Shown: positions 7,195 through 63,947 of the stretch, in pieces
Layout of the letters: the number at the start of each line of letters is the position of its first letter
Numbering within the stretch: position 1 is the first letter of the stretch
Virus record (IMG/VR): IMGVR_UViG_3300032516_000013
Coordinates: 26,333-90,332 of that record
Source of the DNA: a virus
Length of the DNA stretch: 64,000 nucleotides
Reading direction: 5' to 3' (one strand)
Notes under the pieces: generated by a model
Database searches by the model: none
What the model was told of the DNA's origin: nothing
The model's input: only the letters and a program-made list of their open reading frames with translations
Position numbers and translations under genes: made by a program

Positions 7195-7518
7195 CTAGAA
7201 TCCAAAAATATCCCCTACTACGGTCTCATATGAATTTTCCACATCATCGGTATTAGCTGGATTACTTCCAGCCTGATGATAAATAGCAACTTCGTGAGTG
7301 GCGGCAGGAAAACCAGCTGGAATTAAAACAGGAAATTGACCAGTCGTTCCCTTTTCTACTAATATAATAACCGAATCAGCCCAAGTGGTTGAATGGGAAA
7401 ATGCTAATGCAACATTATCCCAAACCATTCCATCTCCTCGACGGATTATTCTATAATAGTAAGTGTTGCCTGTATGTCCCAAAGCATCCATAAAAATGCG
7501 ATCAATATAAATATCCAT
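7195..7518 (-). CDS. Small beta-sandwich-like virion protein
   Basis: LVEKGTTGQF motif resembles neighbouring paralogues; head-module location. Confidence 0.45.
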   Translation of the reverse strand: MDIYIDRIFMDALGHTGNTYYYRIIRRGDGMVWDNVALAFSHSTTWADSVIILVEKGTTGQFPVLIPAGFPAATHEVAIYHQAGSNPANTDDVENSYETVVGDIFGF

Positions 7519-7537
7519 GTTAATCCCCCTTGATTAT

Positions 7538-8026
7538 TTATTTCTTCCCTAATTTTGCTTCTCTCATCTTTGCTTTAGTCTCTTCCGACCTAGGTTTTCT
7601 CAATTTCTGCTTGTGCTCTTCCGACTTAGGCTTCCCTAAATGAGATTCTCGTATTTTTTCAATAGTTTCCGCAGACATAGGGCCACGTTTCTTCCCTAAA
7701 TGAGATTCTCGTAATTTTTCAATAGTCTCATCAGAACATATCTTTCCCCCCTGTCCACCAGAATTAAGATTATATCCATTAGGCCATTGAGTGTTTAATT
7801 CAACAATATATGCTTGTTCAAGTTCGTACGCTTCTTCATAGCTGTCGGCTGCGTCGAGAATATCAAAATCAAAATCATGCTTTCTTAACTTGTTTCCAAT
7901 AAGAGAATTATTTTTTATGTGTTCATAAAATCTCTTCTCCGGATCTTTAGAAACACCAATGTAAGAAAATCCTTTTTCTAAATGGTTCTCATCAATATTA
8001 GTATAGATATAGATGTAGATCTTCAT
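7538..8026 (-). CDS. GIY-YIG homing endonuclease with NUMOD3 repeats
   Basis: IYIY...YIG..K....R...H, LE...I, GYN....GG, then repeated SxETIEKxRESHLG. Confidence 0.85.
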   Translation of the reverse strand: MKIYIYIYTNIDENHLEKGFSYIGVSKDPEKRFYEHIKNNSLIGNKLRKHDFDFDILDAADSYEEAYELEQAYIVELNTQWPNGYNLNSGGQGGKICSDETIEKLRESHLGKKRGPMSAETIEKIRESHLGKPKSEEHKQKLRKPRSEETKAKMREAKLGKK

Positions 8027-19312: not shown

Positions 19313-21793
19313 TCACACTTCTTCAGGTTCATCCTTTATAAGATCTAACTCCTCTTCAACAACTTCCATTTCTGATTCTGGTTTGAACTCGACTATTGTC
19401 TTTGAAAACTTTAATTTCCAAGATCGAGCGTCTCTTTCTATTAACCAACCCGAACTAATGTCTTTGTCTCCTTTTCTCTTAGCTTCTAAAAGAGACTTAT
19501 CTCCAATCTTAATAGCTTCCTCATCATCTTGAACAGAAACTAAAGCTGGCAAATATGATCGAACATCCATGCTCTCAGTAGGACGCCTTCTTGTAAACAA
19601 TTTATCTCTTCGTTTTATTGCCTCATTTATTGCAACATCTGTTATGAGTTCATAATTAATATTTCCTGAACCCAATGTGTTATCCTCTGGTATAAGATTG
19701 CTATAAATGCTTTCAAATCCTGGCTTAGGAGGCTTCTTTTCTCCAGGTTGCTCTCCGGGTAATGCTGTAGGCTTTGCCGTTTCTTCTTTAGCCGCTTTAG
19801 CCGCAATCATTTGTTTTCTTAATTCATCTTCCTTTTGCATAACTTCAGGAGATTTAAAGAAATCTGTAATCTGGAAATCTTCCATCTTTAGAATCTTCTC
19901 ATTAAAATACTCCCAGATCTTCAGCATATCAATTCGATTACCAGCTACCTTTTTCAAAGTCTCAATAAATTTCCTAAATGAATCTATCCCAGAATTCAAA
20001 GACTTCATCATTTGAGCTTCTTCAGTTGAGGAAGTTTCAGACATATGAACTTCAAACAAAGCAGGATCCGGATCCATTCCCATATAAGCAAGATGTATCT
20101 GACATAGGCGAACAATGCCTGAAACTAGCGATCTCTGTAATCTTCTAGCAGATCTGGCGAATCGTATACCTAATTCTGATATAGCCTCAGAACCTAATGC
20201 TCCGGATGATTCCTTAGTAAATGCACCACCTAATGATGGAGAACATGCCATAGCAAATGCTAATTGATTCCTTAAGTTATCAACATCAACAATCCATCGA
20301 ATATCAGCCTCTCCTCCAACCTTCTCATACTTAAGATCATCAATGCTTCCCCACACAGGAACAAAAATATCTTCAATTGCAGTCAATGAATTTTGCTTGT
20401 TATCAAAACCAGGACTGCCATCTCTTGTATCAATAGCTCGAGCCTGAGTAATCAAAGTAGCATATTGATCCATCAAGCTACTAACAGCCTCAGCATTATT
20501 CATATCTACTTTCATCTTCCAAATATAACGAATAATGCCTCTTGTTACACGAGCTAACAGTAAACTATCCTCTGCTAATCGAAGTCTCTTATAAGCAGGT
20601 AATGCATTAAGAGCTATAGATGCTCCATATCTTGTATTTATCTGTTTAGTGTCTCCCCCTGTTACAAGATGGATTTGTCTCATCTCCGCATAACCAGGAT
20701 CGCCTCCAAATTTAGGTCTCTTCCTTTTAGTTCCAAGAAGTCTAAAATGCACATAATCCCATGGAGGAATCAATGCTTGAGATCTATCATCATATCCTGT
20801 CTGAGCAATACCCTGAGGTGTCCTATAGAATCCAACAAGCATTCCTTCCACTTCTACTCGACTTATATGCATTGGATAAACACCATCATCCAAAGAGATA
20901 ACTCCAATACCTGGAACTCCATTTGCTTTTATAAAGAGATCACCAAATGTAGCAACAGAAACAGCCCAGTCAAATATCTTCTCTTCTACTCCTACTTGAT
21001 CTAGAAAACTAGTAAGCTCCTTAGCATATGTATCGTTTTGAGAAGTCACCCAAACTGTTGCATTGTGGATGGGATTGAATGTCGTCGCAACATTCCCATA
21101 AAGATCAAGAGCAGGACCAACAAACCAATGCTCGCAATTACTTACAAAAACGCCAGCTTTCAATGGAAAGTTATGATTCTTCTCAGTTCTTAAACAGTAA
21201 ACATCCTCAAGATGAGGTAATTCCTGAACAATAACAACTTTATGATTCAAAAGACATTCCATTAATTTAGACATTAGGGAATCACCGGATTGAAGATACT
21301 GGGCTTCTTTATATGTTCCATCTCTCAGAAGAAATTTATGATCTAAGGTACAATCTATTTCTTCTCCATTATCCAAAGTAACTCTCACCAATTTAGAAGA
21401 TCTTCTAGTAAGACCAACAGCCATTATTTTATCTGGTTCTAATCCTAAAGTTTCTGGGTTAATACTCAAAGTGTATTTTCCAACAAAGTTCTCAGGATGT
21501 TCTGACATTTCTTTCAATGTTGGAGTTGTGTTGTTTAATAGATACACTTGGGTAGATCCTACAAAACAGGCTCTTTCCAGTTCCTGATACATTCCAAATC
21601 TATCAGCTGAAACTCTAACATCCTCCTCTATCGAACGCTGTAACATCTTAGCAGTCAACCCAGCTTTTTGTAACAGAAGAATTGCATCCTTATCTAACTT
21701 TTGTCCTACTCCACGAAAAGTATCAGCAGGAATCATCGGAGGTTTATCTGTTATACCTGGCAATAATTGAGTAAATGGATTTGTTGAAGGCAT
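19313..21793 (-). CDS. Portal protein (T4 gp20-like) containing an intein
   Basis: VHFRL, YGASI, LRLAEDSLLLARVTR...K.D, EDIFVP and DVDNLRNQL motifs of gp20-type portals. Confidence 0.88.
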   Translation of the reverse strand: MPSTNPFTQLLPGITDKPPMIPADTFRGVGQKLDKDAILLLQKAGLTAKMLQRSIEEDVRVSADRFGMYQELERACFVGSTQVYLLNNTTPTLKEMSEHPENFVGKYTLSINPETLGLEPDKIMAVGLTRRSSKLVRVTLDNGEEIDCTLDHKFLLRDGTYKEAQYLQSGDSLMSKLMECLLNHKVVIVQELPHLEDVYCLRTEKNHNFPLKAGVFVSNCEHWFVGPALDLYGNVATTFNPIHNATVWVTSQNDTYAKELTSFLDQVGVEEKIFDWAVSVATFGDLFIKANGVPGIGVISLDDGVYPMHISRVEVEGMLVGFYRTPQGIAQTGYDDRSQALIPPWDYVHFRLLGTKRKRPKFGGDPGYAEMRQIHLVTGGDTKQINTRYGASIALNALPAYKRLRLAEDSLLLARVTRGIIRYIWKMKVDMNNAEAVSSLMDQYATLITQARAIDTRDGSPGFDNKQNSLTAIEDIFVPVWGSIDDLKYEKVGGEADIRWIVDVDNLRNQLAFAMACSPSLGGAFTKESSGALGSEAISELGIRFARSARRLQRSLVSGIVRLCQIHLAYMGMDPDPALFEVHMSETSSTEEAQMMKSLNSGIDSFRKFIETLKKVAGNRIDMLKIWEYFNEKILKMEDFQITDFFKSPEVMQKEDELRKQMIAAKAAKEETAKPTALPGEQPGEKKPPKPGFESIYSNLIPEDNTLGSGNINYELITDVAINEAIKRRDKLFTRRRPTESMDVRSYLPALVSVQDDEEAIKIGDKSLLEAKRKGDKDISSGWLIERDARSWKLKFSKTIVEFKPESEMEVVEEELDLIKDEPEEV
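21137..21568 (-). mobile_element. Mini-intein (144 aa) in the portal
   Basis: Starts CFVGSTQVYL; block B CTLDHKF; block F DVYCL...HNF; ends VFVSN followed by Cys+1; no LAGLIDADG domain. Confidence 0.9.
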
Positions 21794-23158: not shown

Positions 23159-23446
23159 TCAATCTTCAATTGCCAAAACATCTTGCATGTCTATTATCCG
23201 GAGATTTTCATCCTTACTATCAAGTTCTTGTCCAGAAAAAGAAATTAAAACTCTATCCCCAACCTTTATAGACATAATATTCCTTTTTCCATTACCAAGA
23301 ATCCTACCAGGCCCAACTGCTCTCACCACACCAGTAGTTGGACTCTTCTTAGCAACTCCGGGAATAAGAATTCCTTTGTCTGTTCTATCTTTTGGAACAA
23401 TGTATTCCACCAATAATTTATCACCTAATAAAAGCTGAATGTTCAT
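23159..23446 (-). CDS. groES: Co-chaperonin GroES
   Basis: LGDKLLV...T.KGILIP....K.PTTG.V.AVGPG......IKVGDRVL...D.LAI. Confidence 0.9.
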   Translation of the reverse strand: MNIQLLLGDKLLVEYIVPKDRTDKGILIPGVAKKSPTTGVVRAVGPGRILGNGKRNIMSIKVGDRVLISFSGQELDSKDENLRIIDMQDVLAIED

Positions 23447-24253: not shown

Positions 24254-24781
24254 CTAAAAGAATGTTTTACTATTTTTAACCCCCAATTCTTCTCGCACCC
24301 ATTGAGGATAAGATGATTCCATTTCCCAAGATCTTGTAATAGCATAAGGCAACTTAATTTCTGGATGCTCTTTTAACAATTTCGTAAGTTCCATATACAT
24401 TATATCATACTCTTGATCTGAGACTTCTGAACGAAATAAAACATAGTACAAGTAATCATATCTTGTTAGTTTTCTTTGAAGTTCAAAAATATGCTGCTCA
24501 ACTTCTTTTCCAGAAGTTTCAATTCTTGATTTTCCAACTTGTTTCGGTTCTTTCCATTCATATTTTTTAGGACGATTGATACAAGAACCGACAGAAGGCT
24601 GGAGATAATCTGGTTCAAAACTTAGAAACTCAGTTTCACATTTCCAACAATAAAATAAGCTGTAATACTTCCCATCCTTTTCAAGTGGTAAACAATTGCA
24701 TTGACACCAGTCATGCTCCTGACTAGCCATCAATTCGTCCCACCATGCTCGATGTTGTATTGGGTCAGTAAAGCAAGACAT
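24254..24781 (-). CDS. Stand-alone NAD-dependent ligase subdomain Ia (Nlig-Ia) with a Cys-rich N-terminus
   Basis: L...YDYLYYV....EVSDQEYD....EL..L..EHPE, with no adenylation domain. Confidence 0.7.
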   Translation of the reverse strand: MSCFTDPIQHRAWWDELMASQEHDWCQCNCLPLEKDGKYYSLFYCWKCETEFLSFEPDYLQPSVGSCINRPKKYEWKEPKQVGKSRIETSGKEVEQHIFELQRKLTRYDYLYYVLFRSEVSDQEYDIMYMELTKLLKEHPEIKLPYAITRSWEMESSYPQWVREELGVKNSKTFF

Positions 24782-24840
24782 TATTGTTTCCTAAAAGGGT
24801 GATCATTTTCATTTCTCTCATTTAGTTCTCTCTCATTATT

Positions 24841-24880
24841 TAAATTATACGGGATTTTTCAAGAAAACCAAATGAAAAAT
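24841..24880 (-). promoter_or_regulatory. Repeated sigma70-type (early) promoter, copy 1
   Basis: Minus strand CATTTGGTTTTCTTGAAAAATCCCGTATAATTTA; motif repeated six times. Confidence 0.7.
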
Positions 24881-24887
24881 TGAAAAA

Positions 24888-25718
24888 TCAAAAAAATATT
24901 TTTCTCTTATCTTTGAATGGTTTAATCCAAAGAACTTCTATTCTTTTATCTTCTTCATCACTTTTACCAACAAGAAAATTACTAACAACTTCCTTTTTAA
25001 GAACCTGCCAACCATTACTCTCTAAAGGCTTATAAATTTCATTTTCAAACCCACTCAAAACAACGTAGCCTTTCAAGCATAACAATCTTTCGATCAGTTC
25101 TGCGTGATCTGCATCAATCATTTCAAAATTATACCTACCTGATCTTCTAGTAGAATGAACATAAGGAGGATCAAGATAGAACAATGTTTCCAAAGAATCG
25201 TACTTTTCTAAAATATCTCGCCAGTCCAAATTCTCCAAAACAACTGATTGAAATCTTGAATGTATTTCCGGAAGACCTTTTATAATAGACAACCAAGCTG
25301 CTGCACTTCTGAATGATCTGCTCCAAGAATTATTATTTACAAATATTGCCCCAAATAAATTTCTCACCATAACGAACCATTTTGAAACTCTCTCTACTTT
25401 ATTCTCCTCTGATTGCCATGTTTTTAAACATTCATTAAATAGTTTTAAACTATAAGGCAAAACAGAAACTCTTCGATAAAACTGAGCAAAAAGATCTTCT
25501 TTACTAATAACATCAAAGAAATCATACAAAGCACTGTCTAAATCATTATAGATTTCTTCCCTTACATGTCTCTTTGCAATTAATAATCCTCCAGATCCAC
25601 CAAAAACTTCAACATATCTTTGATGTGGAACTGCTTCTAAAATAGGAAGTATCCAGTTCTGCAAATCCATCCTATTTTTTCCACCAAAAATTTTAATTGG
25701 TGATTTAAGTCTTGCCAT
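24888..25718 (-). CDS. D12-class (Dam-like) DNA adenine methyltransferase
   Basis: GGK, YVEVFGGSG, ND, YLDPPY; probable start MARLKSPI. Confidence 0.9.
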   Translation of the reverse strand: MARLKSPIKIFGGKNRMDLQNWILPILEAVPHQRYVEVFGGSGGLLIAKRHVREEIYNDLDSALYDFFDVISKEDLFAQFYRRVSVLPYSLKLFNECLKTWQSEENKVERVSKWFVMVRNLFGAIFVNNNSWSRSFRSAAAWLSIIKGLPEIHSRFQSVVLENLDWRDILEKYDSLETLFYLDPPYVHSTRRSGRYNFEMIDADHAELIERLLCLKGYVVLSGFENEIYKPLESNGWQVLKKEVVSNFLVGKSDEEDKRIEVLWIKPFKDKRKIFF

Positions 25719-25953
25719 TTTTTCTGAAATTGTTACATCTAAAACAAGGAATACTGTTTCTATCATAACGTGTGAATCTATGCAAACAAGATTGACAACA
25801 CTCAAATTCTGAAGTTCCAAATATGTAATTAACACAAAAATTTGAAAAGTCTAATTTACAAATTTTATGATGAAGGCATTTTGAGCAAGAAGTTTCTTTT
25901 TTAACAATAACATTAAACTCACATTCTCCGTATAACCAATGGGATATTTTCAT
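25705..25953 (-). CDS. Cys-rich hypothetical protein
   Basis: 82 aa with multiple CxxC; coupled to neighbours. Confidence 0.5.
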   Translation of the reverse strand: MKISHWLYGECEFNVIVKKETSCSKCLHHKICKLDFSNFCVNYIFGTSEFECCQSCLHRFTRYDRNSIPCFRCNNFRKNGKT

Positions 25954-26873
25954 TATTTAACTCCCTTCAATAACTCTGGTTCATTTCCTACTATCCAATA
26001 TACTATTTTTCCTTCATGAATTAAGGACTTTCCAATCAGATTCTTTTTAACCCAAGTAAATGTTTTCGCTTCGTAAACTGGATGAAATTTAATGTCTCCA
26101 AAGGAAATATCCTCTACCCTCTTTTCGTAAGTCATTCCTTCAGCAAACAGATCCATATAATTAAATGGATAATTCCAACAATTAACTCCTGTAAGCATCG
26201 CAAGATTTGAAAGTCTGTCTTGAACTTTCTTCTTACGACTAGGAGCAGTTCCTAACAACCAAACATGATTTACCTTCCTATTCCACTTCTGCAAGCCGTA
26301 GATTATCCCTGCAGCCGTGATCCCTGATCCACAGGTCACCGCTAAGTGTTCAATCTCTTCAGGTAGATTGTGAACTTGAATAGCTGTTGAATCATAAAAT
26401 GCCACAAGATTGTGAGGATCCTTGGAGTTCATCCCATAATTTACAATGAAATCACCATCCTCCTTTATCTTCTTAATTTCATGATAAAGAACCGAAGATC
26501 TTCCAGAATTTGCTATTTGAATCTCTGCTCCAAAGTGCTTAACCAACCGAGGCATGTGCTTTTCATCAAGATATTCCTTCTTTGTTCCTCCATAGAACAC
26601 AATACATTCCATGCCAAAATATTTGGATAGTGCTGCAATTATTGGTGCCTGCGGAGAGTTTAAAGAACATCCCGTTAAGATTCTCTTATAGCCTTGCTCT
26701 TTCGCTTGTGCTAAGAGAAATGCTCCTTGACGAAATTTGCCACCATTAACATTGCCAAGACCAAAAGGAGTAAACAAATCATCTCTCTTAAAGAATACAC
26801 CTTCAACCTCTTGAACTGGTGTTAATTCAAAGGCTCCAAGATCTTCTAATAATTGTTGAGAGGAAAGAATCAT
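25953..26873 (-). CDS. PLP-dependent enzyme (ACC deaminase/D-cysteine desulfhydrase fold)
   Basis: LTPV.....KRDD......GGK.R, SPQ, CGSGITAAG, P.YEAK, WIVG. Confidence 0.82.
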   Translation of the reverse strand: MILSSQQLLEDLGAFELTPVQEVEGVFFKRDDLFTPFGLGNVNGGKFRQGAFLLAQAKEQGYKRILTGCSLNSPQAPIIAALSKYFGMECIVFYGGTKKEYLDEKHMPRLVKHFGAEIQIANSGRSSVLYHEIKKIKEDGDFIVNYGMNSKDPHNLVAFYDSTAIQVHNLPEEIEHLAVTCGSGITAAGIIYGLQKWNRKVNHVWLLGTAPSRKKKVQDRLSNLAMLTGVNCWNYPFNYMDLFAEGMTYEKRVEDISFGDIKFHPVYEAKTFTWVKKNLIGKSLIHEGKIVYWIVGNEPELLKGVK

Positions 26874-26939
26874 TTGTTTAAATTATTCCTCCTATCAAAT
26901 CCGGTGCTCCATTCATGTCTGCTCCACTCAGTAAGGCTG

Positions 26940-27530
26940 CTAAGAGATCCGGTAAATATGCCGCAGGTCTGCTCCACGCAGGTCTGCTCCACTCAGGTTT
27001 GCTTCATTCATGTCTGCTCCATACAGGTTGGCTTCACACAGGTTTGCTCCACGCAGGTTTGCTCCATTCATGTCTGCTCCACTCAGGTTTGCTCCATACA
27101 GGTCTGCTCCATACAGGTCTGCTCCAATCAGGTTTGCTCCACTCAGGTTTGCTCCATACAGGTTTGCTCCACTCAGGTTTGCTCCATTCATGTCTGCTCC
27201 ACTCAGGTTTGCTCCATACAGGTCTGCTCCATACAGGTTTGCTCCACACAGGTTTGCTCCACTCAGGTTTGCTCCACTCAGGTTTGCTCCATACAGGTTT
27301 GCTCCACTCAGGTTGGCTTCACGCAGGTCTGCTCCATACATGTCTGCTCCACTCAGGTTTGCTCCACTCAGGTTTGCTCCATACAGGTCTGCTTCACGCA
27401 GGTTGGCTTCACGCAGGTCTGCTCCATACAGGTCTGCTCTACTCAGGTTTGCTCCATACAAGTTAGCTTTAGCTTTTATTTCATAACCATTTACATTCAC
27501 ATTCACTTCTGTTTTCTTTTTATTTTTCAT
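26940..27530 (-). CDS. Pentapeptide-repeat protein, copy A (3' end appears frameshifted)
   Basis: A(N/D)LxG repeats encoded by 15-bp units. Confidence 0.85.
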   Translation of the reverse strand: MKNKKKTEVNVNVNGYEIKAKANLYGANLSRADLYGADLREANLREADLYGANLSGANLSGADMYGADLREANLSGANLYGANLSGANLSGANLCGANLYGADLYGANLSGADMNGANLSGANLYGANLSGANLIGADLYGADLYGANLSGADMNGANLRGANLCEANLYGADMNEANLSGADLRGADLRHIYRIS

Positions 27531-27539
27531 ATCTTCTCC

Positions 27540-27555
27540 TATTTGCCTATTTGCC
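27540..27555 (-). repeat. 8-bp tandem repeat (GGCAAATA)x2 in the 5' leader
   Basis: Counted directly. Confidence 0.8.
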
Positions 27556-27569
27556 TTCTCTCACTAATT

Positions 27570-27610
27570 AAATTATACGGGATGATTTAGAAAAAGCCAA
27601 ATGAAATCTT
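27570..27610 (-). promoter_or_regulatory. Repeated early promoter, copy 2
   Basis: CATTTGGCTTTTTCTAAATCATCCCGTATAATTTA. Confidence 0.7.
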
Positions 27611-27640
27611 AGGAAAAAGAAAAATTTATTTTGTTAATTT

Positions 27641-27663
27641 GTGAAACAAACAATTTGCTTCAC
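27641..27663 (-). repeat. Repeated stem-loop GTGAAGCAAA-TTG-TTTGTTTCAC
   Basis: Identical 23-mer at 27641, 54156, 55067 and 63918, each just after a gene end. Confidence 0.75.
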
Positions 27664-27692
27664 TTGTTAGTTAACCAATAACAACACCTAAA

Positions 27693-28166
27693 TTAACAAA
27701 AATTATTTCCATCTGTTCTTTTGTAATTTTTTGCTCCATTCATGTCTGCTCCATACATGTCTGCTCCACGCAGGTTTGCTCCACGCAGGTTTGCTCCATA
27801 CATGTCTGCTCCACTCAGGTTTGCTCTACTCAGGTTTGCTCCAATCAGGTTTGCTCCACGCAGGTTTGCTCCATTCATGTCTGCTCCATTCATGTCTGCT
27901 CCATACAGGTTTGCTCCACTCAGGTTTGCTCCACTCAGGTCTGCTCCACGCAGGTTTGCTCCATACAGGTCTGCTCCATTCATGTCTGCTCCATACAGGT
28001 TTGCTCCACGCAGGTTTGCTCCACGCAGGTTGGCTTCACTCAGGTTTGCTTCATACAGGTCTGCTCCACGCAGTTCTACTCCACGCAGGTTTGCTCCATG
28101 CAAGTTAGCTTTAGCTTTTATTTTATAACCATTTACGTTCACTTCTGTTTTCTTTTTATTTTTCAT
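27693..28166 (-). CDS. Pentapeptide-repeat protein, copy B (C-terminus frameshifted by one extra A)
   Basis: Same N-terminus as copy C; A6 instead of A5 before the conserved tail. Confidence 0.85.
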   Translation of the reverse strand: MKNKKKTEVNVNGYKIKAKANLHGANLRGVELRGADLYEANLSEANLRGANLRGANLYGADMNGADLYGANLRGADLSGANLSGANLYGADMNGADMNGANLRGANLIGANLSRANLSGADMYGANLRGANLRGADMYGADMNGAKNYKRTDGNNFC

Positions 28167-28175
28167 ATCTTCTCC

Positions 28176-28247
28176 TATTTGCCTATTTGCCTATTTGCCT
28201 ATTTGCCTATTTGCCTATTTGCCTATTTGCCTATTTGCCTATTTGCC
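28176..28247 (-). repeat. 8-bp tandem repeat (GGCAAATA)x9
   Basis: 72 bp, counted directly. Confidence 0.9.
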
Positions 28248-28260
28248 TTCTCTCACTAAT

Positions 28261-28300
28261 TAAATTATACGAGATGAATTGAGAAAACCAAATGAAATCT
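28261..28300 (-). promoter_or_regulatory. Repeated early promoter, copy 3
   Basis: CATTTGGTTTTCTCAATTCATCTCGTATAATTTA. Confidence 0.7.
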
Positions 28301-28315
28301 TAGAAAAAGAAAAAT

Positions 28316-28534
28316 TTATTTTTGCACTATTTCAATTCCCTCTGGCACAGAAATAGGTCTTGTTCCATCAAGTGAAAAAATGAAATTAAGGCTGAGATCT
28401 TTTCCTATCTTTTTCAGATTCTCTATCATTTCTCCTAAAGATTCTGGATCTTCAAGCAATCTACTTCTGCTTATGGTGATCCAGTATATCTTTCCAGGTT
28501 CAAGAGATTTTATGTCTTCGATTTCAATGTTCAT
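28316..28534 (-). CDS. Hypothetical protein
   Basis: 72-aa ORF. Confidence 0.55.
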   Translation of the reverse strand: MNIEIEDIKSLEPGKIYWITISRSRLLEDPESLGEMIENLKKIGKDLSLNFIFSLDGTRPISVPEGIEIVQK

Positions 28535-28543
28535 ATTACATCC

Positions 28544-29638
28544 TCACATCTTAATATCAAAAGCCTTTGCTCGACTCTCAATATCAAGACCCATTGTCTT
28601 ATAACCATATTCACTCTTTGCTATTTCTCTCATCATAACATCAAAAGGTATTTGATCCAACACATCTCCACACCATGCGCTTTGCTGAAGCGTCCTAAAA
28701 CAAACTGTTGTGCCAACTTTTTTCATTGCAGGAGTGGGTTGAGGATCTTCTCCCATATAGATGTGGTTAAGATTATATTTATTACCAACAAATCCTGGCA
28801 TATCATCACACCCACAGCAACCAAGACTATCTCCCATCCATCTTAAACGATTTTCCCCACAAAAGAAAGCTAATCCTAAATCTTTTGCTCTTGTTCTGAT
28901 CTTTGTAAAATGTTCTTCCAATAACCAAGTAGGATAACATAAATCGCCTCCCACTTGTTCCATTCCGGGAAGCTTGCCTTCATAGCATTTCATTCCTTCG
29001 ATTACAACACCATATACTCCAGCCTCTTTAGATTTAGGTAATGTAATATTCAATACATTGTCCAATTCCTCAATCATGTAAGGCTGGATTCGAACTATCA
29101 TTCTAGGCACTACTGCTGCTACCTTCTTGATTATCTCTAATCTTTGATAAAACGAAGGAGCACCAGGCTCAAGTTTATCATATTCTGGAGATACAAGTGA
29201 ATACTGAAAGCAGACATTGCACTTTGATAGCAAAGACAAATATTCCGGATTTGCTGGTAAAGCATGTTTTGTAGAAACAATCCAAGGATATTCTGTTTCA
29301 GCTAATATTTCCATGCATTGAAACATCCGACGCTTTTCCCTTTCAACGGGCTGAAAACAGTCTGACATACCCCCAAAATGCAGAGGAAATTTCCAATCAG
29401 AATCAATCCAGGAAACTTCATGCTTTCTTTCACCATCTATAAAGTTCCTTAATGCTTGAGGTCCTTCATCATTTTCAACTTCTACTTTAGTACCAATTAT
29501 TTCATCTTTTTTACGTCTCGTGAAGCAATAACGGCAGCCCGAAACGCAGCCTTTATAAGTATCAAATCTTACTGGATAATCACACAAAACTACTTGGGAA
29601 CCTGCTCTTGGCATTTTTATTCCTCCTTCTTTCCACAC
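28544..29638 (-). CDS. Radical SAM enzyme (spore photoproduct lyase-like clade)
   Basis: DTYKGCVSGCRYCF (CxxxCxxC), GGMSDCFQP.E, STK, LEPGAPS...R, VRIQP. Confidence 0.88.
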   Translation of the reverse strand: MWKEGGIKMPRAGSQVVLCDYPVRFDTYKGCVSGCRYCFTRRKKDEIIGTKVEVENDEGPQALRNFIDGERKHEVSWIDSDWKFPLHFGGMSDCFQPVEREKRRMFQCMEILAETEYPWIVSTKHALPANPEYLSLLSKCNVCFQYSLVSPEYDKLEPGAPSFYQRLEIIKKVAAVVPRMIVRIQPYMIEELDNVLNITLPKSKEAGVYGVVIEGMKCYEGKLPGMEQVGGDLCYPTWLLEEHFTKIRTRAKDLGLAFFCGENRLRWMGDSLGCCGCDDMPGFVGNKYNLNHIYMGEDPQPTPAMKKVGTTVCFRTLQQSAWCGDVLDQIPFDVMMREIAKSEYGYKTMGLDIESRAKAFDIKM

Positions 29639-29841
29639 ACCATTTCTATAATCATTTTCACAATCGGCTCCTTGCCATGTTCCTTCATATAAGCTTCCAC
29701 CTTCTCAAAATCATCGAGCCTAAAAATAAATGAGGTTGACATAAAGAGTTTAGCTCCCATTATTTCTGCAGCTCCAAAAATAGCATCTTTAACTCCTTTA
29801 TGCTTGAGTCCCGCCCAGGCCGGTGCTTTAAATCTATCCAT
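29617..29841 (-). CDS. Hypothetical protein
   Basis: Probable start MDRFK after GGAGGA; overlaps the rSAM start. Confidence 0.45.
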   Translation of the reverse strand: MDRFKAPAWAGLKHKGVKDAIFGAAEIMGAKLFMSTSFIFRLDDFEKVEAYMKEHGKEPIVKMIIEMVCGKKEE

Positions 29842-29842
29842 G

Positions 29843-30655
29843 CTATATTTCCTCCAAATGTTTCTTTGTTTGCCAATAATAATTTTCACAGTTGCCGCAG
29901 TCTTTGCAGTATCCGCTCTCAGGAGTACCACACATCGTAACCAACCGACCACCAATATTCTTCATTCTCTTCAACACGTATCTCATATACTCTGAAGTTG
30001 GGCACCAATAAGAATTTATATGACGAACTTTCCAAGTGTAAGCTATTCTTCCAAAATCTTTTCGATCAGAAAGTATACATATATTTTTATCCCAATCTTC
30101 TAAATTTTTTCTAACATTTTCCTGTTTCGGCGGCTTAATGGTTCCTGGCGGAAGTTGATCATAGTATGCCATGTATGTAAGGACGCAATTAACCCCCAAT
30201 GTAGTAATATTTCTTATAGCATGTTCTATATGCAGAAGATTTGTTGGAGAAACTCTAAGTCTAATAAACATCATATTTTCTGGAATTTTGGTTTCCCCAA
30301 ACATAAAAACAGGTTTTTCCTCTTTTGGATTCGCCGTAAATACAACAGGACCAGGAAAATCAAATTTTGGAATAGATGTATTGAAAAAGAAATGCTTATA
30401 CTGTTTTGCAGTTTCAATAACCAGATCTCTTTGAAGATTGCTGTCGTTTCCACAGTTTATGCGACATATTCCATCCCCAACTTCTTCTGATGTAGGAATG
30501 CTTGGTTGATCAATAGGAACATAAAATGCTCCAGGCCTGTTGTAGAAACATTGATTACATTGATTTCGACAAGGTCCTACTTGAGGAATACAATCGAACA
30601 AATTAGAACCTTCTTGTTTAGGATTTCGTTTGGTCATTTTTATTTTTCTCTGCAA
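29843..30655 (-). CDS. Divergent radical SAM-like Fe-S protein
   Basis: GPCRNQCNQCFY (CxxxCxxC) plus a C-terminal C..C..C cluster. Confidence 0.6.
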   Translation of the reverse strand: MQRKIKMTKRNPKQEGSNLFDCIPQVGPCRNQCNQCFYNRPGAFYVPIDQPSIPTSEEVGDGICRINCGNDSNLQRDLVIETAKQYKHFFFNTSIPKFDFPGPVVFTANPKEEKPVFMFGETKIPENMMFIRLRVSPTNLLHIEHAIRNITTLGVNCVLTYMAYYDQLPPGTIKPPKQENVRKNLEDWDKNICILSDRKDFGRIAYTWKVRHINSYWCPTSEYMRYVLKRMKNIGGRLVTMCGTPESGYCKDCGNCENYYWQTKKHLEEI

Positions 30656-30900
30656 GATATTTCAGAAATTTGTGTTGAATGTTCTCATTAAGCACATGTA
30701 TCGCCAGTTGTGTGTCAAAGATGTTCATATTTTTTAATAGTTTTATAAACCCTGGACGTAACCTCGTCATACCAATCTATTTTATTAGAACGAGTTATAA
30801 ACTCATAAACATCTTTTAGTAGTTTTAATACGTTTTTAGGTAGTGGTGTTGGTTTCATTTTTTCTTTAGACATATATATTCCTCAATCTATCTCCTAAAA

Positions 30901-31338
30901 TTAAAGGTTTTTACCTTTCTCAGTAAATGGTTTTACACAGTATGGGTATTTTTGAATTATTTCTTCAGCCTGCTTATTTAACTGAGAAATATCCAAACCT
31001 TCAGGATATTTGAGTGGTCTATCGTCTTCACAATTTCCCATAAGCATTGAGTCTCTTAATACAAAAAGACAGGCTATTGCTTTAATAATATGAAAGACAC
31101 CACTATCTGGATCAATATCTTCTCCTTCCCACCAAGCCATAAGATGTCGAATTACAGCATCATAATATACTGAAGATCTTACACCAACACTCCTATAATT
31201 GTGGGAACCATACTTACGACCACCTTCCATCATAGCCAAACCTAGTTCCATTAAAGGACCACATGGTACACAGTGAAAAGGAACTTTTTTAATTCCTAAT
31301 GCATCCTTTGGATTAGTTGGTTTAGTTTTTTCGATCAC
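30901..31338 (-). CDS. dATP/dGTP diphosphohydrolase-like protein (DUF5664-type)
   Basis: NPKD..G.KK.P, G..KYG..N.R, Y.DA..RHL.AWWEGED.DPDSG..H..A.A, DDRP. Confidence 0.8.
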   Translation of the reverse strand: MIEKTKPTNPKDALGIKKVPFHCVPCGPLMELGLAMMEGGRKYGSHNYRSVGVRSSVYYDAVIRHLMAWWEGEDIDPDSGVFHIIKAIACLFVLRDSMLMGNCEDDRPLKYPEGLDISQLNKQAEEIIQKYPYCVKPFTEKGKNL

Positions 31339-31355: not shown

Positions 31356-31562
31356 TTATTTCCTTAATTTTGCTAAAAACCAATTTAACATTTGCTTAAA
31401 CCAACTCAATTTCTTTTCTACAATCTCTTTTTCACATAAATTCTGAAATCTCTTTTTCAAAAGAAAAGTTTCAGCTACAAGATTTGCCTCATTCCGAACA
31501 GATCTAATTTGTTTTTTATTTAACAAAGGAAGTTCTTTGTATTTATACCAAGGAAACTTCAT
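31356..31562 (-). CDS. Hypothetical protein
   Basis: 68-aa ORF coupled to the sigma gene. Confidence 0.45.
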   Translation of the reverse strand: MKFPWYKYKELPLLNKKQIRSVRNEANLVAETFLLKKRFQNLCEKEIVEKKLSWFKQMLNWFLAKLRK

Positions 31563-32164
31563 TTTTGATCCTCTAAAATTCCTCTTACCCTAAATTGATG
31601 TCGAATTCTTAATAAAGCATCCTGTATATATTTTCTAACAGTTCCTTCAGGCATATCAAATAATTTTGATATTTTTTCACAAGAAAATTCTCTCTTGTAT
31701 CGAAGTAAAACTAAATTCAATTCTTTTTGTGTTAAAATTTCTTCTTTAACCAATTGTTCCAATGATTCTTGTATAAATTCATTCTCCAATTCTAAAAAAG
31801 CAGAATTATCTACTTCAACAGATTTCTGACTTAAAATAAACTCTTCTGGCATTGGCTTATACGGAAATTCCACCCTAATAGCACACTTCATATAAGCTAT
31901 CATACGAGCTATCATGAGATCTGAAGATTCTTCTAACTTAACTTTTAATAAACCATTATTCAATCCTATTAAAGCAGTCTGGTAAATATCCTCAGCATCT
32001 TCGTCCATTAAATGAGGACAAACTTTACGACAACCATGTACAACAGAAAGAACTAAATTATCCACTCTGGATAAAATTCTTTCAAACAATTGAGGATCTA
32101 ATTTTTCTTGGTACTCTAAAACTAATTCTTTCAACACACCTTTAAAAATCTTGTCCGATTCCAT
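31559..32164 (-). CDS. Sigma70-family RNA polymerase sigma factor
   Basis: EDIYQTALIGL (region 2); LT.KE..LVLLRY....S.EKIS......EGTV (region 4 HTH). Confidence 0.75.
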   Translation of the reverse strand: MESDKIFKGVLKELVLEYQEKLDPQLFERILSRVDNLVLSVVHGCRKVCPHLMDEDAEDIYQTALIGLNNGLLKVKLEESSDLMIARMIAYMKCAIRVEFPYKPMPEEFILSQKSVEVDNSAFLELENEFIQESLEQLVKEEILTQKELNLVLLRYKREFSCEKISKLFDMPEGTVRKYIQDALLRIRHQFRVRGILEDQK

Positions 32165-34130
32165 GTTGTCCTTTCTGTAAACATTTAGCTTTCCTCAATA
32201 ACATATTATACGAAGAAAGCTGCTCCTTTGAAACTCCAGTTTCAATTTTTTCTTCCCTTTTAACTTCCACACCAGCTAAACGTAAATATTCAGAGTTAAC
32301 AACATCTTTTGGTTTTGACATAGTTCTATTTAACAAATTCTTCATGATTTCTTGATCCGGAGGCATTATACATTTTTCAATAGCTCTTGTTACTGAGGCC
32401 GCCACAGAATCAGAAATATCCTTACTTCCTTTTAATACTATTTCTCTAGTGTTTCCATCTTCCAAAAATTCCAACTCTGCCACCTCTTCTGGATGATCAA
32501 TCATATTTTTATCTGAATCTTCTTCCAAGTTCTTCAACTCAAAATGAAGATAAGGATGCCAAGGACTACTCCATCTTTCTTCCAAAATTAAATTTCTAAA
32601 TCCCCTATAAATATTTGGATCCTTATCCACAGAAAAATAATCACAAGCTATTCCTGCTCTTTCCAATATTTGTTTATCACTCTCTGTAGCCAATCTTAAA
32701 TCAAAGGTACATTCTGCAATATTAAATCCATGAACACTCTTTAAATCTAATATCATCTTTCGAACCAATGCTAAAGGTATTCTGTCGCCAGGATAAGCTT
32801 TGATTCGAAGAGCAAAATCTGTTGCTGCCACAGGAACTTTTTCCACATGAAAAGTACCATCTGCATTCTCTACATTTTTTCTTGCCCAGCCAGAAATGCA
32901 AGACATTGCGAGTCCAAAGGCATCCCCATCCCCGGAATAAGCAAAGTCTCCGTGTATAAATCTAGGAACATTTCGTGGAATCTTAATTAAATTTAAATCC
33001 AAAAAATTCAACAAGTTTATGTCATCTTTTAATCCAACATTTAATGTCATAACTTTGACAGGATTTGGCTCTTCTGTAAAGCATTTCAAAATCAAACTCT
33101 CAGAAGGAAATAACTTTGTGGCTCGAATATGAGATACAGATATACCTCCGATATCTCGGAGACTTCCGTTCACATCCCGCAAAAACAGATCATAAAAATC
33201 CATCGGAACTCTGATAATTTGATATCCTGCTCGAGTAACTTGTTCTAATTCTTCTGGTGTTTCTACTATTTTTGGTGGGTTGTAAACATCTCCACAAGAC
33301 ACAGTAAACTCTTCCTTAGAAAAATCTGCTCTAGGTCTTGCCAACCAAAGAGGAACGTCTACAATAACAATGCTTTTAGAATTTTTGTACTTTGCTATAA
33401 AAGTATTCAAAAAAGATAATCTTTCCTGCTTTGAAGCAACCATAAAGAATCGGCCTATCGTTTCCTCATGTGTAACGAAACGAGATTCCAATCTTCTTCG
33501 AGCATTCTCATAAGCGGATACAACTTTTTCTCTTTGGATTTCTGAAGCTATTGGAGAATCTACTTCATCCAATAATGCAAGTATAATATGCTCCCCCTGC
33601 GAACCCCAGCCGGGAACAAAGGGAGAAGCAAAGGTATATTTAAAAAGAGGAAACTCCAATTTAGGATTTAATTCCGATCCACCTAAAAATCCTCTCTCCC
33701 TAAACCAAGGAGAATTTACCAAACAATTTTGAAACAACTTATATGCTGTACTTTCACTTTGACTCTTTGTCAAATTGAAAAACACAATAGACATCTGACT
33801 GCCTGGAGCTTTTCCAAAATATGCCCAAGGGTCTTTAAGACAAAGGACACGACACATTGTGTAAAGCATGCCATAAATCGCACAGAACGTCTTACCTATC
33901 CCAATCGCACCCGTTAGTACATAAACATATTTAGAATCCTCCTTAGCAACCAATTCAAGAGTATCTTTCCAAACCGGATAAACAGATTTTCCATTATTTG
34001 TCAATTTCCCCAGATATTGAGGACTAGAAAGAAATTCCTCCATACTAGGAGGCTGTTCCTTATAGTTAAGGCCAGTAACATAACTAAGATAGTTATGAAT
34101 CAAATCCTTTTTACTCATTCTTTGATTCAT
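32142..34130 (-). CDS. terL: Terminase large subunit
   Basis: Walker A GAIGIGKT, Walker B LALLDE, RNase H-like HGDF...GDA, IDHP and KDISDSVA. Confidence 0.85.
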   Translation of the reverse strand: MNQRMSKKDLIHNYLSYVTGLNYKEQPPSMEEFLSSPQYLGKLTNNGKSVYPVWKDTLELVAKEDSKYVYVLTGAIGIGKTFCAIYGMLYTMCRVLCLKDPWAYFGKAPGSQMSIVFFNLTKSQSESTAYKLFQNCLVNSPWFRERGFLGGSELNPKLEFPLFKYTFASPFVPGWGSQGEHIILALLDEVDSPIASEIQREKVVSAYENARRRLESRFVTHEETIGRFFMVASKQERLSFLNTFIAKYKNSKSIVIVDVPLWLARPRADFSKEEFTVSCGDVYNPPKIVETPEELEQVTRAGYQIIRVPMDFYDLFLRDVNGSLRDIGGISVSHIRATKLFPSESLILKCFTEEPNPVKVMTLNVGLKDDINLLNFLDLNLIKIPRNVPRFIHGDFAYSGDGDAFGLAMSCISGWARKNVENADGTFHVEKVPVAATDFALRIKAYPGDRIPLALVRKMILDLKSVHGFNIAECTFDLRLATESDKQILERAGIACDYFSVDKDPNIYRGFRNLILEERWSSPWHPYLHFELKNLEEDSDKNMIDHPEEVAELEFLEDGNTREIVLKGSKDISDSVAASVTRAIEKCIMPPDQEIMKNLLNRTMSKPKDVVNSEYLRLAGVEVKREEKIETGVSKEQLSSYNMLLRKAKCLQKGQHGIGQDF

Positions 34131-34839
34131 TTCCCTTATTCCCTTCCACAAATTCAGCATTTGTTGCTTCTTGAGCTAAATTTGTTAGTTGATGAATCAA
34201 TTTTTCTCTTTCCATAGGAGTCATTTCTTCCGCCTTTTTTGCTATTGATGATTCAACAGGAATCCCAGAAAGAGGAGGGTTGTTTTGTTGCTGATTAACA
34301 AATATGTAATTTTTGTCCCCCTTAGAAGTTGGCTCTCCTGATTCTGCTATAAACCCCATTTCTTTTGCAAATTTCATGAGATGCTCACTCTCTAATCTCA
34401 TATCTTTAATCAGGCGAAGCTTCAGATTTTCCAGGTCCAGATTCTTTGCTTTTGCAACATTACAAGTATTATTGCATTTTAAGCATCTGTAATAGATATT
34501 TCCCTCAATAGTTTCATGTTTATCTACAGGAAATTCACAACAAGCAGAGACTAAAGGTTCCTCCTTTCCATCCCAATGTGTGTATATTGCTTCCAGTTTA
34601 GCCTGCCGACTCATAGATTGTCGGAGAACCTCTTGAGCTAAATTACAAGCAACCCAATATTTGACATCTCTGTCCTGCTTAGTTTTAAACTTAACTAAAA
34701 TCTTATTGACAACAGAAACTGGAACATCAGTTCCCGCATAATTAGACGCTTCTTCTGCAACTCTATCCAAATTCTGTGGATATCTCAAAAGAAGAAATCT
34801 AATGTGCTCTTCTAACTTTAGTTTTACTATATTTCCCAT
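34111..34839 (-). CDS. Putative terminase small subunit
   Basis: Directly upstream of and overlapping terL; helical with a Cys cluster. Confidence 0.4.
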   Translation of the reverse strand: MGNIVKLKLEEHIRFLLLRYPQNLDRVAEEASNYAGTDVPVSVVNKILVKFKTKQDRDVKYWVACNLAQEVLRQSMSRQAKLEAIYTHWDGKEEPLVSACCEFPVDKHETIEGNIYYRCLKCNNTCNVAKAKNLDLENLKLRLIKDMRLESEHLMKFAKEMGFIAESGEPTSKGDKNYIFVNQQQNNPPLSGIPVESSIAKKAEEMTPMEREKLIHQLTNLAQEATNAEFVEGNKGNESKNE

Positions 34840-54123: not shown

Positions 54124-54155
54124 CTTACAATCCTCCCAAATAAATTAATACTTTT

Positions 54156-54178
54156 GTGAAACAAACAATTTGCTTCAC
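54156..54178 (-). repeat. Repeated stem-loop
   Basis: Identical 23-mer. Confidence 0.75.
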
Positions 54179-54185
54179 TTGTTAG

Positions 54186-54935: not shown

Positions 54936-54944
54936 ATCTTCTCC

Positions 54945-54984
54945 TATTTGCCTATTTGCCTATTTGCCTATTTGCCTATTTGCC
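54945..54984 (-). repeat. 8-bp tandem repeat (GGCAAATA)x5
   Basis: 40 bp, counted directly. Confidence 0.9.
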
Positions 54985-54997
54985 TTCTCTCACTAAT

Positions 54998-55035
54998 TAA
55001 ATTATACGAGATGAATTGAGAAACTAAATGAAATC
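54998..55035 (-). promoter_or_regulatory. Repeated early promoter, copy 4
   Basis: CATTTAGTTTCTCAATTCATCTCGTATAATTTA. Confidence 0.65.
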
Positions 55036-55066
55036 TTTAAAAATAAAAAATTTATTTTGTTAATTT

Positions 55067-55089
55067 GTGAAACAAACAATTTGCTTCAC
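55067..55089 (-). repeat. Repeated stem-loop
   Basis: Identical 23-mer, after the methyltransferase gene. Confidence 0.75.
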
Positions 55090-55108
55090 TTGTTAGTTAT
55101 ACTAATGA

Positions 55109-56596: not shown

Positions 56597-56618
56597 AATT
56601 TAAAACTTAGTTTCTACT

Positions 56619-63940: not shown

Positions 63941-63947
63941 TTGTTAG

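Follow-up and report, generated by a model that had tools for sequence, protein, structure and literature searches.

The thymidine hypermodifications described so far all start from 5-hydroxymethyldeoxyuridine (5-hmdU), which is then phosphorylated and substituted (PMC8989533 and PMC13458397). In Pseudomonas phage M6, the pathway leading to 5-(2-aminoethyl)-2'-deoxyuridine (5-NedU) comprises, as described in PMC8989533, a thymidylate-synthase-like enzyme (gp58), a 5-hmdU DNA kinase (gp54/gp55), an amino acid:DNA transferase (AADT; gp51), a pyridoxal 5'-phosphate (PLP) decarboxylase (gp52), and a radical S-adenosylmethionine (SAM) isomerase (gp53). The isomerase gp53, which resembles spore photoproduct lyase (SPL), converts N-alpha- to C-alpha-glycinylthymine in DNA, and gp52 (modelled on PDB entry 1j0a) then decarboxylates it to 5-NedU; gp226 of Salmonella phage ViI is a homologous decarboxylase (PMC8989533). 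Here, we analyze a stretch of viral DNA of 64,000 nucleotides (the window), which corresponds to bases 26333 to 90332 of one linear IMG/VR contig of 90,332 bp (record IMGVR_UViG_3300032516_000013) and carries nearly all of its genes on the minus strand. A preliminary description had read positions 24254 to 31338 of this window as a single putative base-hypermodification cluster. We find that this 7-kb stretch is a mosaic accessory island in the variable terminase-portal gap of an uncultured T4-like myovirus, and that its functional core is a three-gene module, in which a 74-aa protein accompanies an SPL-fold radical SAM enzyme and a fold-type-II PLP enzyme and which may modify thymine in DNA without the entry steps used by M6.

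The radical SAM enzyme (28544..29638, minus strand; listed with 364 aa, with a gene call of 356 aa from a methionine near 29614) is, judging from profile alignment and predicted fold, a homologue of M6 gp53. Its cluster motif, C31-x3-C35-R-Y-C38, a CxxxCxxC motif with an aromatic residue before the third cysteine, is invariant in 26 family sequences (mean column identity of the alignment, 61%), and its cysteines line up with the CTVGCAFC of gp53. The family profile aligned with gp53 over 260 columns in hhalign (probability 94.6%, E value of 7e-8). The AlphaFold2 (AF2) model had a pLDDT of 89.4, and the top six Foldseek matches in the PDB were all SPL structures (E values of 2.5e-7 to 1e-6, TM scores of 0.50 to 0.57), with SkfB following as the seventh. 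The sequence scored 21.9 bits against PF04055, under the cut-off of 29.5, and matched the NCBIfam PA0069-type radical SAM model with an E value of 2e-13; the SPL family models were not reached (PF20903, no match at E<=1 on the contig; TIGR04070, 13 bits versus a cut-off of 400), and the best hit of a profile search against PDB sequences had an E value of only 1.5. The family comprises 371 of 1068 candidates at E<=1e-3, and relatives are encoded in 282 of 307 IMG/VR and 287 of 389 metagenome candidate stretches found by alignment-based scans; single-sequence scans of IMG/VR and metagenomes, by contrast, returned no close relatives of either the radical SAM or the PLP enzyme. Close copies in bacterial genomes come from records titled Lachnospiraceae, Ruminococcus, Collinsella, Peptoniphilaceae, Victivallis, Clostridium, Coriobacteriaceae, and Ellagibacter, beyond which the similarity falls to at most 29% (cellular Rv2578c/PA0069-type proteins). 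One of the close copies (L150) belongs to a Peptoniphilaceae strain that has been cultured.

The PLP enzyme (25953..26873, minus strand; PALP PF00291, 49 bits versus a cut-off of 35) belongs to the ViI gp226/M6 gp52 family and is, as far as its sequence tells, a homologue of M6 gp52, which BLASTP aligned over the full length with 24% identity (E value of 1e-12); the match to phrog_3650 had an E value of 1e-45. Residue K46, which aligns with K36 of gp52, the proposed Schiff-base lysine, is kept in 94 of 96 aligned sequences, and in the Gly-Ser phosphate loop G182 is kept in 93 and S183 in 92 of the 96. By bit score, the enzyme appears nearer to the phage DNA-modification family than to metabolic PALP enzymes, scoring 111 to 144 bits against phage proteins fused to AADT or kinase domains versus 30 bits against 1-aminocyclopropane-1-carboxylate (ACC) deaminase (1j0a), its closest solved sequence relative. 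The family has 791 representatives at E<=1e-3, and tblastn retrieved 403 phage records, including 160 from Salmonella, 46 from Pseudomonas, 44 from Klebsiella, and 29 from Escherichia phages, with Vibrio also prominent. Ten longer proteins were scanned, and the domain combinations among them include HMUD2 kinase-PLP-AADT, AADT-PLP, PLP-AADT, kinase-PLP, and N6_N4 methylase-PLP; because its members are fused to kinase, AADT, and methylase domains, the PLP family as a whole is tied to DNA chemistry. In a quick tree of the 96 sequences, made without an outgroup, the window enzyme and all 10 PLP enzymes adjacent to a radical SAM gene fall into one group (SH-aLRT of 91), which is sister to a clade (SH-aLRT of 100) with four kinase- or AADT-fused forms. 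The likeness of the two enzymes to those of M6, which the preliminary description had proposed, is borne out for both gp52 and gp53 by BLASTP, hhalign, and the fold comparison.

The two genes recur as neighbors. A set of 88 radical SAM loci was assembled, 80 from IMG/VR and 8 from bacterial genomes, and a PLP homologue starts no more than 600 nt downstream of the radical SAM gene in 46 of them and lies elsewhere in the locus in none. Another set of 80 loci comes from metagenomes and shares some members with the IMG/VR set; an adjacent PLP gene is present in 56 of them and no PLP gene in 23, 20 of the latter with at least 1.5 kb of downstream sequence. Directly upstream of the radical SAM gene lies the gene for the 74-aa protein (29617..29841, minus strand), which is probably the real product of a small open reading frame (ORF) listed in a longer form (29617-29955, minus strand). 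This protein is conserved in four relatives, with homologues in the matching position in L227, L065/L228, L229, and L231 (L numbers denote individual loci) and 11 invariant residues. It has no family match (Pfam, PHROG, and NCBIfam, searched with the long form) and no Atlas match; a word-indexed search of a big protein index gave only one other homologue, and it was found in 2 of 80 IMG/VR and 4 of 80 metagenome radical SAM loci, being absent from the gut clade.

The order 74-aa gene, radical SAM gene, PLP gene is common to the window, L227, L065/L228, and L229, phages that share terminase and portal. L229 has the order terminase, sigma factor, methylase, triplet, portal; in L065/L228, the order is terminase, sigma factor, zinc ribbon, T4-type deoxynucleoside monophosphate (dNMP) kinase, triplet, SLOG protein, portal; and in L227 a 120-aa ORF, a gene for a 270-aa protein also present in the window, and extra ORFs precede the triplet, which is followed by an HNH-type ORF and a methylase gene. 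The triplet is absent from L029, where the order is terminase, sigma factor, DUF5664, 270-aa gene, portal. Since the triplet order is kept while its surroundings change, the terminase-portal gap is a hotspot for exchangeable cargo in which the triplet forms one unit.

The entry enzymes of the known pathways were found neither in the window's phage nor in its relatives. On the whole 90,332-bp contig, profile searches gave no match to PF00303 (thymidylate synthase family), PF18724 (AADT), PF18723, PF12851, or PF18747, and PF18748 matched with just 11 bits (E value of 0.01) inside a DnaB-like ORF; the 5-hmdU kinase, amino acid:DNA transferase, and dUMP hydroxymethylase that the preliminary description had not seen are also lacking in this whole-contig search. 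The search of viral records covered 20 that encode this radical SAM enzyme, of which 18 are at least 90% complete, 5 are proviruses, and 2 have terminal repeats; 13 have an adjacent PLP gene, 11 of these being at least 90% complete. None of the 20 records, and hence none of the 18 near-complete ones, matched PF18724, PF00303, PF18748, PF18723, PF18747, or PF12851, the last of which (Tet_JBP domain) was missing from 21 of 21 records in a search run without a positive control. Among the positive controls, M6 was positive for PF18724, PF18748, and PF18723, and PF00303 was found in 10 of 14 control genomes. Two kinase candidates were discarded: the gene beside the pair in L065, considered as a hidden 5-hmdU DNA kinase, encodes the T4-type dNMP kinase (PF21448), and a thymidylate-kinase-like protein encoded next to members of the 270-aa family has just the P-loop in common with M6 gp54. 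The absence of known entry enzymes favors the earlier suggestion of a different, undescribed modified base; there is no sign of a purine modification.

In gut-phage relatives, the usual gene order is RecU, a helix-turn-helix protein, one or two ParB-like proteins, the radical SAM enzyme, an optional PLP enzyme, the small (TerS) and large (TerL) terminase subunits, and portal. A ParB-like gene ends no more than 700 nt upstream of the radical SAM gene in 40 of 80 loci, and TerS or TerL lies no more than 3 kb downstream in 61 of 80. A subclass of phage thymine dioxygenases requires a ParB-like activator on double-stranded DNA, and these enzymes co-occur with ParB (27%) and terminase (19%) genes (O'Toole et al., PNAS 2026, PMC13229309). 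Gut-phage relatives with the radical SAM gene often have, about 7 kb upstream, a gene for a 301-aa protein whose N-terminal part is a PemK/MazF toxin domain (E value of 6e-24; L106, 2925-3830), seen in 17 of 80 loci.

With the supply of 5-hmdU, the 5-hmdU DNA kinase, and the AADT all missing, the radical SAM enzyme would start the chemistry itself. We tentatively propose, at slightly less than an even chance, that the module performs a post-replicative modification of DNA, at thymine, that begins without the known entry steps. Its target would be thymine in the replicated, double-stranded DNA of the phage itself: SAM would be cleaved by the radical SAM enzyme, the resulting 5'-deoxyadenosyl radical would produce a thymine C5-methylene radical, an intermediate handled by SPL and M6 gp53 alike, and this radical would be joined to an amino-acid-derived group. 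The PLP enzyme would then decarboxylate the adduct via its Schiff-base lysine, K46, as M6 gp52 and ViI gp226 do, and the carboxylated form would stay in phages that have no PLP gene. We infer this substrate, the radical chemistry, and the product from the homology, the fold, the intact cofactor motifs, the recurrent adjacency, and the absence of entry genes. A more specific form of the proposal, in which the SPL-fold enzyme is an oxygen-independent entry enzyme that attaches an amino-acid-derived group to the C5-methyl of ordinary T in double-stranded DNA and the PLP enzyme, where present, trims it, is conceivable and rather unlikely as it stands. We would give the same guarded standing to the idea that such a two-enzyme route from plain T, free of 5-hmdU, kinase, and transferase, is what the ParB-activated thymine dioxygenases correspond to under anaerobic conditions, that it is compatible with lysogeny, and that many phages of gut anaerobes have it.

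Several observations weigh against a thymine modification of this kind. The pair is not obligatory, since the radical SAM gene has no PLP gene within the locus in 42 of the 88 loci, 35 of which have at least 1.5 kb on both sides, and in the window itself the two genes are 1.7 kb apart, with inserted cassettes that have their own promoters and terminators in between. Entry genes could lie on the missing part of the phage genome, the source contig being 58% complete by CheckV with ~42% of the genome unseen; divergent entry enzymes may fall outside the Pfam models, and PF18747 and PF12851 were searched for without a positive control. In the PLP tree, M6 gp52 falls outside on a branch of length 3.8, and because this branch is very long its placement is unreliable; the phylogeny against the M6 enzymes called for in the preliminary description thus defines the radical SAM-adjacent clade and its fused sister forms and leaves the position of gp52 unsure. 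No ParB_N gene is present on the contig of the window's phage, which has the 74-aa protein in that position, and the ParB-like genes beside terminase in the gut phages may be positional rather than functional, the counts having no background control. The substrate could also be something other than DNA.

The last point leads to the strongest alternative, in which DNA is not modified at all: the radical SAM enzyme would be an SPL-style lesion-repair lyase beside an unrelated PLP enzyme, or both enzymes would act on a nucleotide, a metabolite, or a peptide. A repair lyase would fit the many radical SAM genes that have no PLP partner (42/88) and the label "DNA repair photolyase" that relatives carry in the source databases, and the nearest curated radical SAM families (the PA0069 and Rv2578c types) are uncharacterized; neither of the island's radical SAM proteins, however, reaches the SPL family models PF20903 and TIGR04070, and in 46 of 88 loci the radical SAM gene has the PLP gene right next to it. 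The named hosts of close prophage copies are gut taxa, which also speaks against repair. The hosts of the gut copies are anaerobes, where UV photoproducts matter little. For a metabolic role, the resemblance of the PLP enzyme to ACC deaminase and D-cysteine desulfhydrase has to be set against its far higher scores to AADT- and kinase-fused phage proteins (111 to 144 bits versus 30 bits for solved metabolic enzymes). The small ORF upstream of the radical SAM gene recalls peptide-modifying systems, and SkfB is among the fold matches, whereas the gut clade does without the 74-aa protein (2/80 and 4/80 loci). On this evidence, we consider a role outside DNA modification unlikely.

An ordinary M6-type pathway, in which 5-hmdU replaces T, is phosphorylated, and receives glycine, would place the remaining genes on the unseen ~42% of the genome and make the radical SAM and PLP enzymes functional orthologues of gp53 and gp52. 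The homology to both M6 proteins and the fusion of PLP family members to AADT and kinase domains agree with such a pathway, as do the incompleteness of the contig (58%) and its right end, which stops just after a repeated promoter unit. The five M6 genes are contiguous, however, whereas the window, L227, L065, and L229 have no homologues of gp51, gp54, gp55, or gp58 near the pair. Moreover, 18 of 18 near-complete genomes with the radical SAM gene are without the entry families, including proviruses, where wholesale replacement of T is unlikely, and the window PLP enzyme groups in the quick tree with forms that adjoin a radical SAM gene and not with the fused clade. We regard this pathway as improbable, more so than a role outside DNA modification.

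That all genes from DUF5664 through Nlig-Ia belong to a single pathway making a new base, possibly one derived from a purine, as the preliminary description held more widely, is very improbable: the genes do adjoin on one strand, DUF5664 proteins hydrolyze dATP and dGTP (PMC12884076), and L227, the closest relative, has its 270-aa, 74-aa, radical SAM, PLP, and methylase genes in the same order, but the 270-aa family and the pair occur together in 0/62, 0/80, and 1/80 loci, L229 and L065 have the pair without the 270-aa gene while L029 has the 270-aa gene without the pair, the neighbors of the 270-aa family are typically replication and nucleotide-metabolism genes, separate promoter units precede the Nlig-Ia and pentapeptide genes, and PurZ-type, tRNA-guanine transglycosylase (TGT)/DpdA, and DUF550 matches are lacking on the contig. 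The gene set and its order had been described correctly, all genes being present on the minus strand with the expected family signals (Pfam, PHROG, NCBIfam, and the ORF list); the claim of one 7-kb cluster gives way to a mosaic, since tblastn of the island proteins in three sets of loci (62 IMG/VR loci of the 270-aa family and the 80 IMG/VR and 80 metagenome radical SAM loci) shows separate modules. As cargo independent of the module, the island carries the DUF5664 hydrolase, the Dam-like methylase, the 270-aa protein, the solo Nlig-Ia protein, and two pentapeptide cassettes.

The 270-aa cysteine-rich, radical-SAM-like protein (29843..30655, minus strand; gene call of 264 aa) has a CxxxCxxC motif and is one of a large family of viral proteins for which Pfam has no model (607 of 728 candidates at E<=1e-3, 50 to 64% identity). 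Its residues C29, C33, and C36 and five C-terminal cysteines are invariant in 26 sequences, with glutamine, not an aromatic residue, before the third cysteine. No Pfam, PHROG, NCBIfam, or PDB sequence match was found. The AF2 model (pLDDT of 77.7) gave generic alpha/beta barrel matches, with VIA Z scores of at most 6.8 (pyruvate formate-lyase activating enzyme, 6.4; Mmp10, 6.1), no Foldseek match at E<=1e-3, and no specific fold family by Foldseek or VIA, while its Atlas matches reached TM scores of 0.58 to 0.59 with radical SAM and viral SPL-family clusters. The Atlas suggestion that it is a DUF5131 or GP88 protein was dropped, as these Pfam models have no match on the contig, and a paralogous relationship to the SPL-like enzyme is out at sequence level (hhalign of the family alignments, probability of 15%). 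Within 10 kb of the 270-aa family in 62 IMG/VR loci, the SPL-like radical SAM, PLP, pentapeptide, Nlig-Ia, and cysteine-rich ORF homologues were each found in 0/62, DUF5664 in 3/62, and methylase in 5/62; in turn, the family occurs in 0/80 IMG/VR and 1/80 metagenome loci of the radical SAM-PLP type. Its usual neighbors are DNA polymerase A (33 loci), N6_N4 methylase (33), ATP-dependent ligase (32), a weak nucleoside-deoxyribosyltransferase-like protein (31), a 334-aa protein without a family (28), ParB (23), DeoC aldolase (20), and RNA ligase (14), together with a 5'-deoxyribonucleotidase and a thymidylate-kinase-like protein, which is directly downstream in seven loci. The protein is radical-SAM-like with a likely role in nucleotide or DNA metabolism, and its neighborhood (L003 to L064) may represent a separate, undescribed nucleotide or DNA pathway.

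The DUF5664 (dGTP_diPhyd_N) protein (30901..31338, minus strand) is likely a deoxynucleoside triphosphate (dNTP) pyrophosphohydrolase, matching PF18909 with 84.8 bits versus a cut-off of 27 (E value of 4e-24; profile positions 2 to 99 of 99) and phrog_2252 with an E value of 4e-57. The stand-alone DUF5664 protein of Arthrobacter phage Wayne hydrolyzes dATP, dGTP, and dUTP, and phages whose DNA is canonical have the domain as well (PMC12884076). On the contig, searches found no PurZ/PurA-type (PF00709; control positive in 14/14 genomes), TGT/DpdA, or DUF550 protein, the DUF550 search being without a positive control; the DUF5664 gene is therefore no sign of base replacement in this phage. Purine or 7-deazaguanine modification was rejected on these grounds.

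Downstream of the PLP gene lie an 82-aa cysteine-rich ORF whose start overlaps the PLP stop (25705..25953, minus strand), which has no family match (Pfam, PHROG, and NCBIfam) and no homologue in the related loci (62 + 80 + 80), and the Dam-like DNA adenine methyltransferase (24888..25718, minus strand; long ORF, 24888-25835). The methyltransferase matches phrog_56 with an E value of 1e-45 and TIGR00571 (dam) with 35.8 bits (E value of 7e-9), far under the cut-off, and it probably starts at the methionine near 25718, because the long ORF resembles Dam only from residue 44 onward; in relatives, its gene follows the PLP gene in L227 (61% identity), precedes the radical SAM gene in L229, and is absent in L065. 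The solo Nlig-Ia protein (24254..24781, minus strand; 175 aa, with a cysteine-rich N terminus) scores 28.9 bits against PF22745 versus a cut-off of 27. Its domain spans residues 96 to 143, and LigA models match over their first ~50 positions only; on sequence evidence, the protein has no ligase catalytic module beside this domain. Phage proteins of this solo type have been described as a class of predicted NAD+ binders, with a tie to NAD+ and not to base modification (PMC9503650). A putative 72-aa ORF after the radical SAM gene (28316..28534, minus strand) has no family match (Pfam, PHROG, and NCBIfam) and no tblastn match in the 62 + 80 + 80 related loci. In L227, the 120-aa ORF is DUF5664-like by eye and a candidate only (BLASTP E value of 0.038); a small ORF just before the 74-aa gene (2774-3148) has, by eye, a cytidine/dCMP-deaminase-like HAE...PCxxC motif, and the HNH-type ORF (7331-7966, by eye) between the PLP and methylase genes takes roughly the position of the 82-aa cysteine-rich ORF of the window and is no homologue of it.

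The two pentapeptide-repeat genes, cassette 1 (27693..28166, minus strand; PF00805, E value of 4e-56) and cassette 2 (26940..27530, minus strand; PF00805, E value of 3e-87), split the radical SAM gene from the PLP gene in the window's phage; cassette 1 is absent from the related loci (0/62, 0/80, and 0/80). The pentapeptide and Nlig-Ia genes are separate cassettes, each with its own terminator-promoter unit, a repeated element that combines a hairpin and a T-run with a sigma-70-like promoter bearing the -10-like core TCNCGTATAATTTAA. This core has six copies in the window versus 0.71 expected, a count reached in 0 of 100 shuffles; they lie at 24840..24854 (minus strand), 27568, 28260, 54997, 56618, and 63846, and five units could be aligned. 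Units or pieces of them span 24786-24901, 27514-27723, 28206-28321, 54101-54238, 54943-55099, 56618-56632, and 63792-64000, with 28206-28321 ahead of cassette 1, 27514-27629 ahead of cassette 2, and 24786-24901 ahead of the Nlig-Ia gene; the unit precedes three pentapeptide genes, the Nlig-Ia gene, and a gene beginning at the contig end. The third pentapeptide gene (54186-54935) lies in the replication module with the same unit upstream, and one member of the scanned pentapeptide set had a Pfam E value of 2e-85. The pentapeptide leaders contain tandem GGCAAATA octamers, and the final 100 bases of the contig duplicate window positions ~27624-27723.

The island is flanked by the genes for the large terminase (32142-34160) and a sigma factor (31559-32164) on one side and for the portal protein (19313-21793) on the other. 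T4-like structural genes for a gp23-type capsid protein, baseplate proteins, and a tail tube occupy the left part of the contig, and the right part is a replication module with DNA polymerase A, 5'-3' exonuclease, RecA, a clamp-loader-like protein, an N6_N4 methylase, a UDG-superfamily protein, and an SNF2 helicase besides the third pentapeptide gene. Between the island and the portal gene, a GroES-like 95-aa protein (23159-23446, recognized by eye) is kept in L227 and L065. The portal ORF encodes 826 aa, ~170 aa more than the 653-aa portal of L065, and its insert looks intein-like by eye, with a cysteine at its start and His-Asn-type residues before a cysteine at its end; an Intein_splicing domain (E value of 3e-16) was found in one protein of the left contig part. 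The structural region left of the window (contig positions 1-26000) also encodes an M42 glutamyl aminopeptidase (E value of 5e-53), a group-1 glycosyltransferase, and a class-I methyltransferase.

The enzyme families of the module are themselves known; the novelty lies in the pair standing as an orphan, in how widely it occurs, in its carriage by temperate phages, and in its ParB/terminase context. The radical SAM gene, with or without the PLP gene, occurs in near-complete temperate phages that have none of the entry enzymes, and the published metavirome survey, which is anchored on the 5-hmdU kinase (PMC8989533), could not have seen kinase-free modules. Our literature searches gave no description of a kinase-free radical SAM-PLP pair or of the 270-aa family; contigs of this kind might be listed in Supplementary Fig. 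S15 of PMC8989533 or in Dataset S10 of PMC13229309. Should the pair modify DNA, it would constitute a new, minimal, and probably oxygen-free route to modified thymine and extend radical SAM chemistry on DNA beyond SPL and gp53; restriction-resistant DNA would then be predicted in many gut phages, with a bearing on host-range prediction, sequencing bias, and DNA-labelling enzymes. The island also indicates that adjacency within the terminase-portal hotspot is a poor guide to pathway membership.

Compared with the accessory domains described elsewhere, the DUF5664 and Nlig-Ia proteins share their Pfam domains and single-domain form with the phage Wayne protein (PMC12884076) and the solo Nlig-Ia class (PMC9503650). 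The Nlig-Ia protein differs from that class by its extra cysteine-rich N-terminal part, the DUF5664 gene has no link to a Z-genome, as the incomplete contig, unlike Z-genome phages, has no PurZ-type gene, and in other loci neither gene is linked to the radical SAM-PLP pair. The closest system to the pair itself is that of M6, a Yuavirus, with which it shares an SPL-fold radical SAM enzyme and a fold-type-II PLP enzyme that are neighbors in relatives and have intact cluster cysteines and Schiff-base lysine. Unlike in M6, the gene order is reversed (radical SAM, then PLP), the identity is only 22 to 24%, and the radical SAM enzyme is without the ~120-residue N-terminal part of gp53, the alignment starting at gp53 residue 119. 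The transferase, kinase, and hydroxymethylase of M6 are not found on the contig or in the 18 near-complete genomes, and the kinase and transferase that supply gp53 with N-alpha-glycinylthymine are not co-encoded on the incomplete contig or in any of the 20 records. ViI gp226 belongs to the same PLP family (phrog_3650), whereas ViI has a kinase and a transferase and no radical SAM partner (PMC8989533), and the window enzyme falls into a subclade whose sampled members, unlike gp226, adjoin an SPL-like radical SAM gene.

In structure, the best match of the radical SAM model is SPL (SplB; PDB 4fhc and others). SPL is a radical SAM enzyme that acts on thymine in DNA via a thymine methylene radical. 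This mechanism is also taken up in the discussion of PMC8989533. Unlike SPL, the present enzyme comes from a phage and frequently has a PLP enzyme as its partner, and it leaves the SPL family models unmatched. With the ParB-dependent phage thymine dioxygenases (5mYOX; PMC13229309), the SPL-like enzyme of the gut-phage relatives, which are phages of strict anaerobes, shares its genomic niche, one or more ParB-like genes being followed by the modifying enzyme and then by terminase genes; the words "radical" and "PLP" are not found in the text of that paper. Like these dioxygenases, the module is proposed to act on thymine in double-stranded DNA after replication, and it differs from them in its chemistry, its enzyme being a radical SAM protein and not a member of the Fe(II)/2-oxoglutarate superfamily. 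Radical SAM enzymes, unlike Fe(II)/2-oxoglutarate enzymes, need no oxygen.

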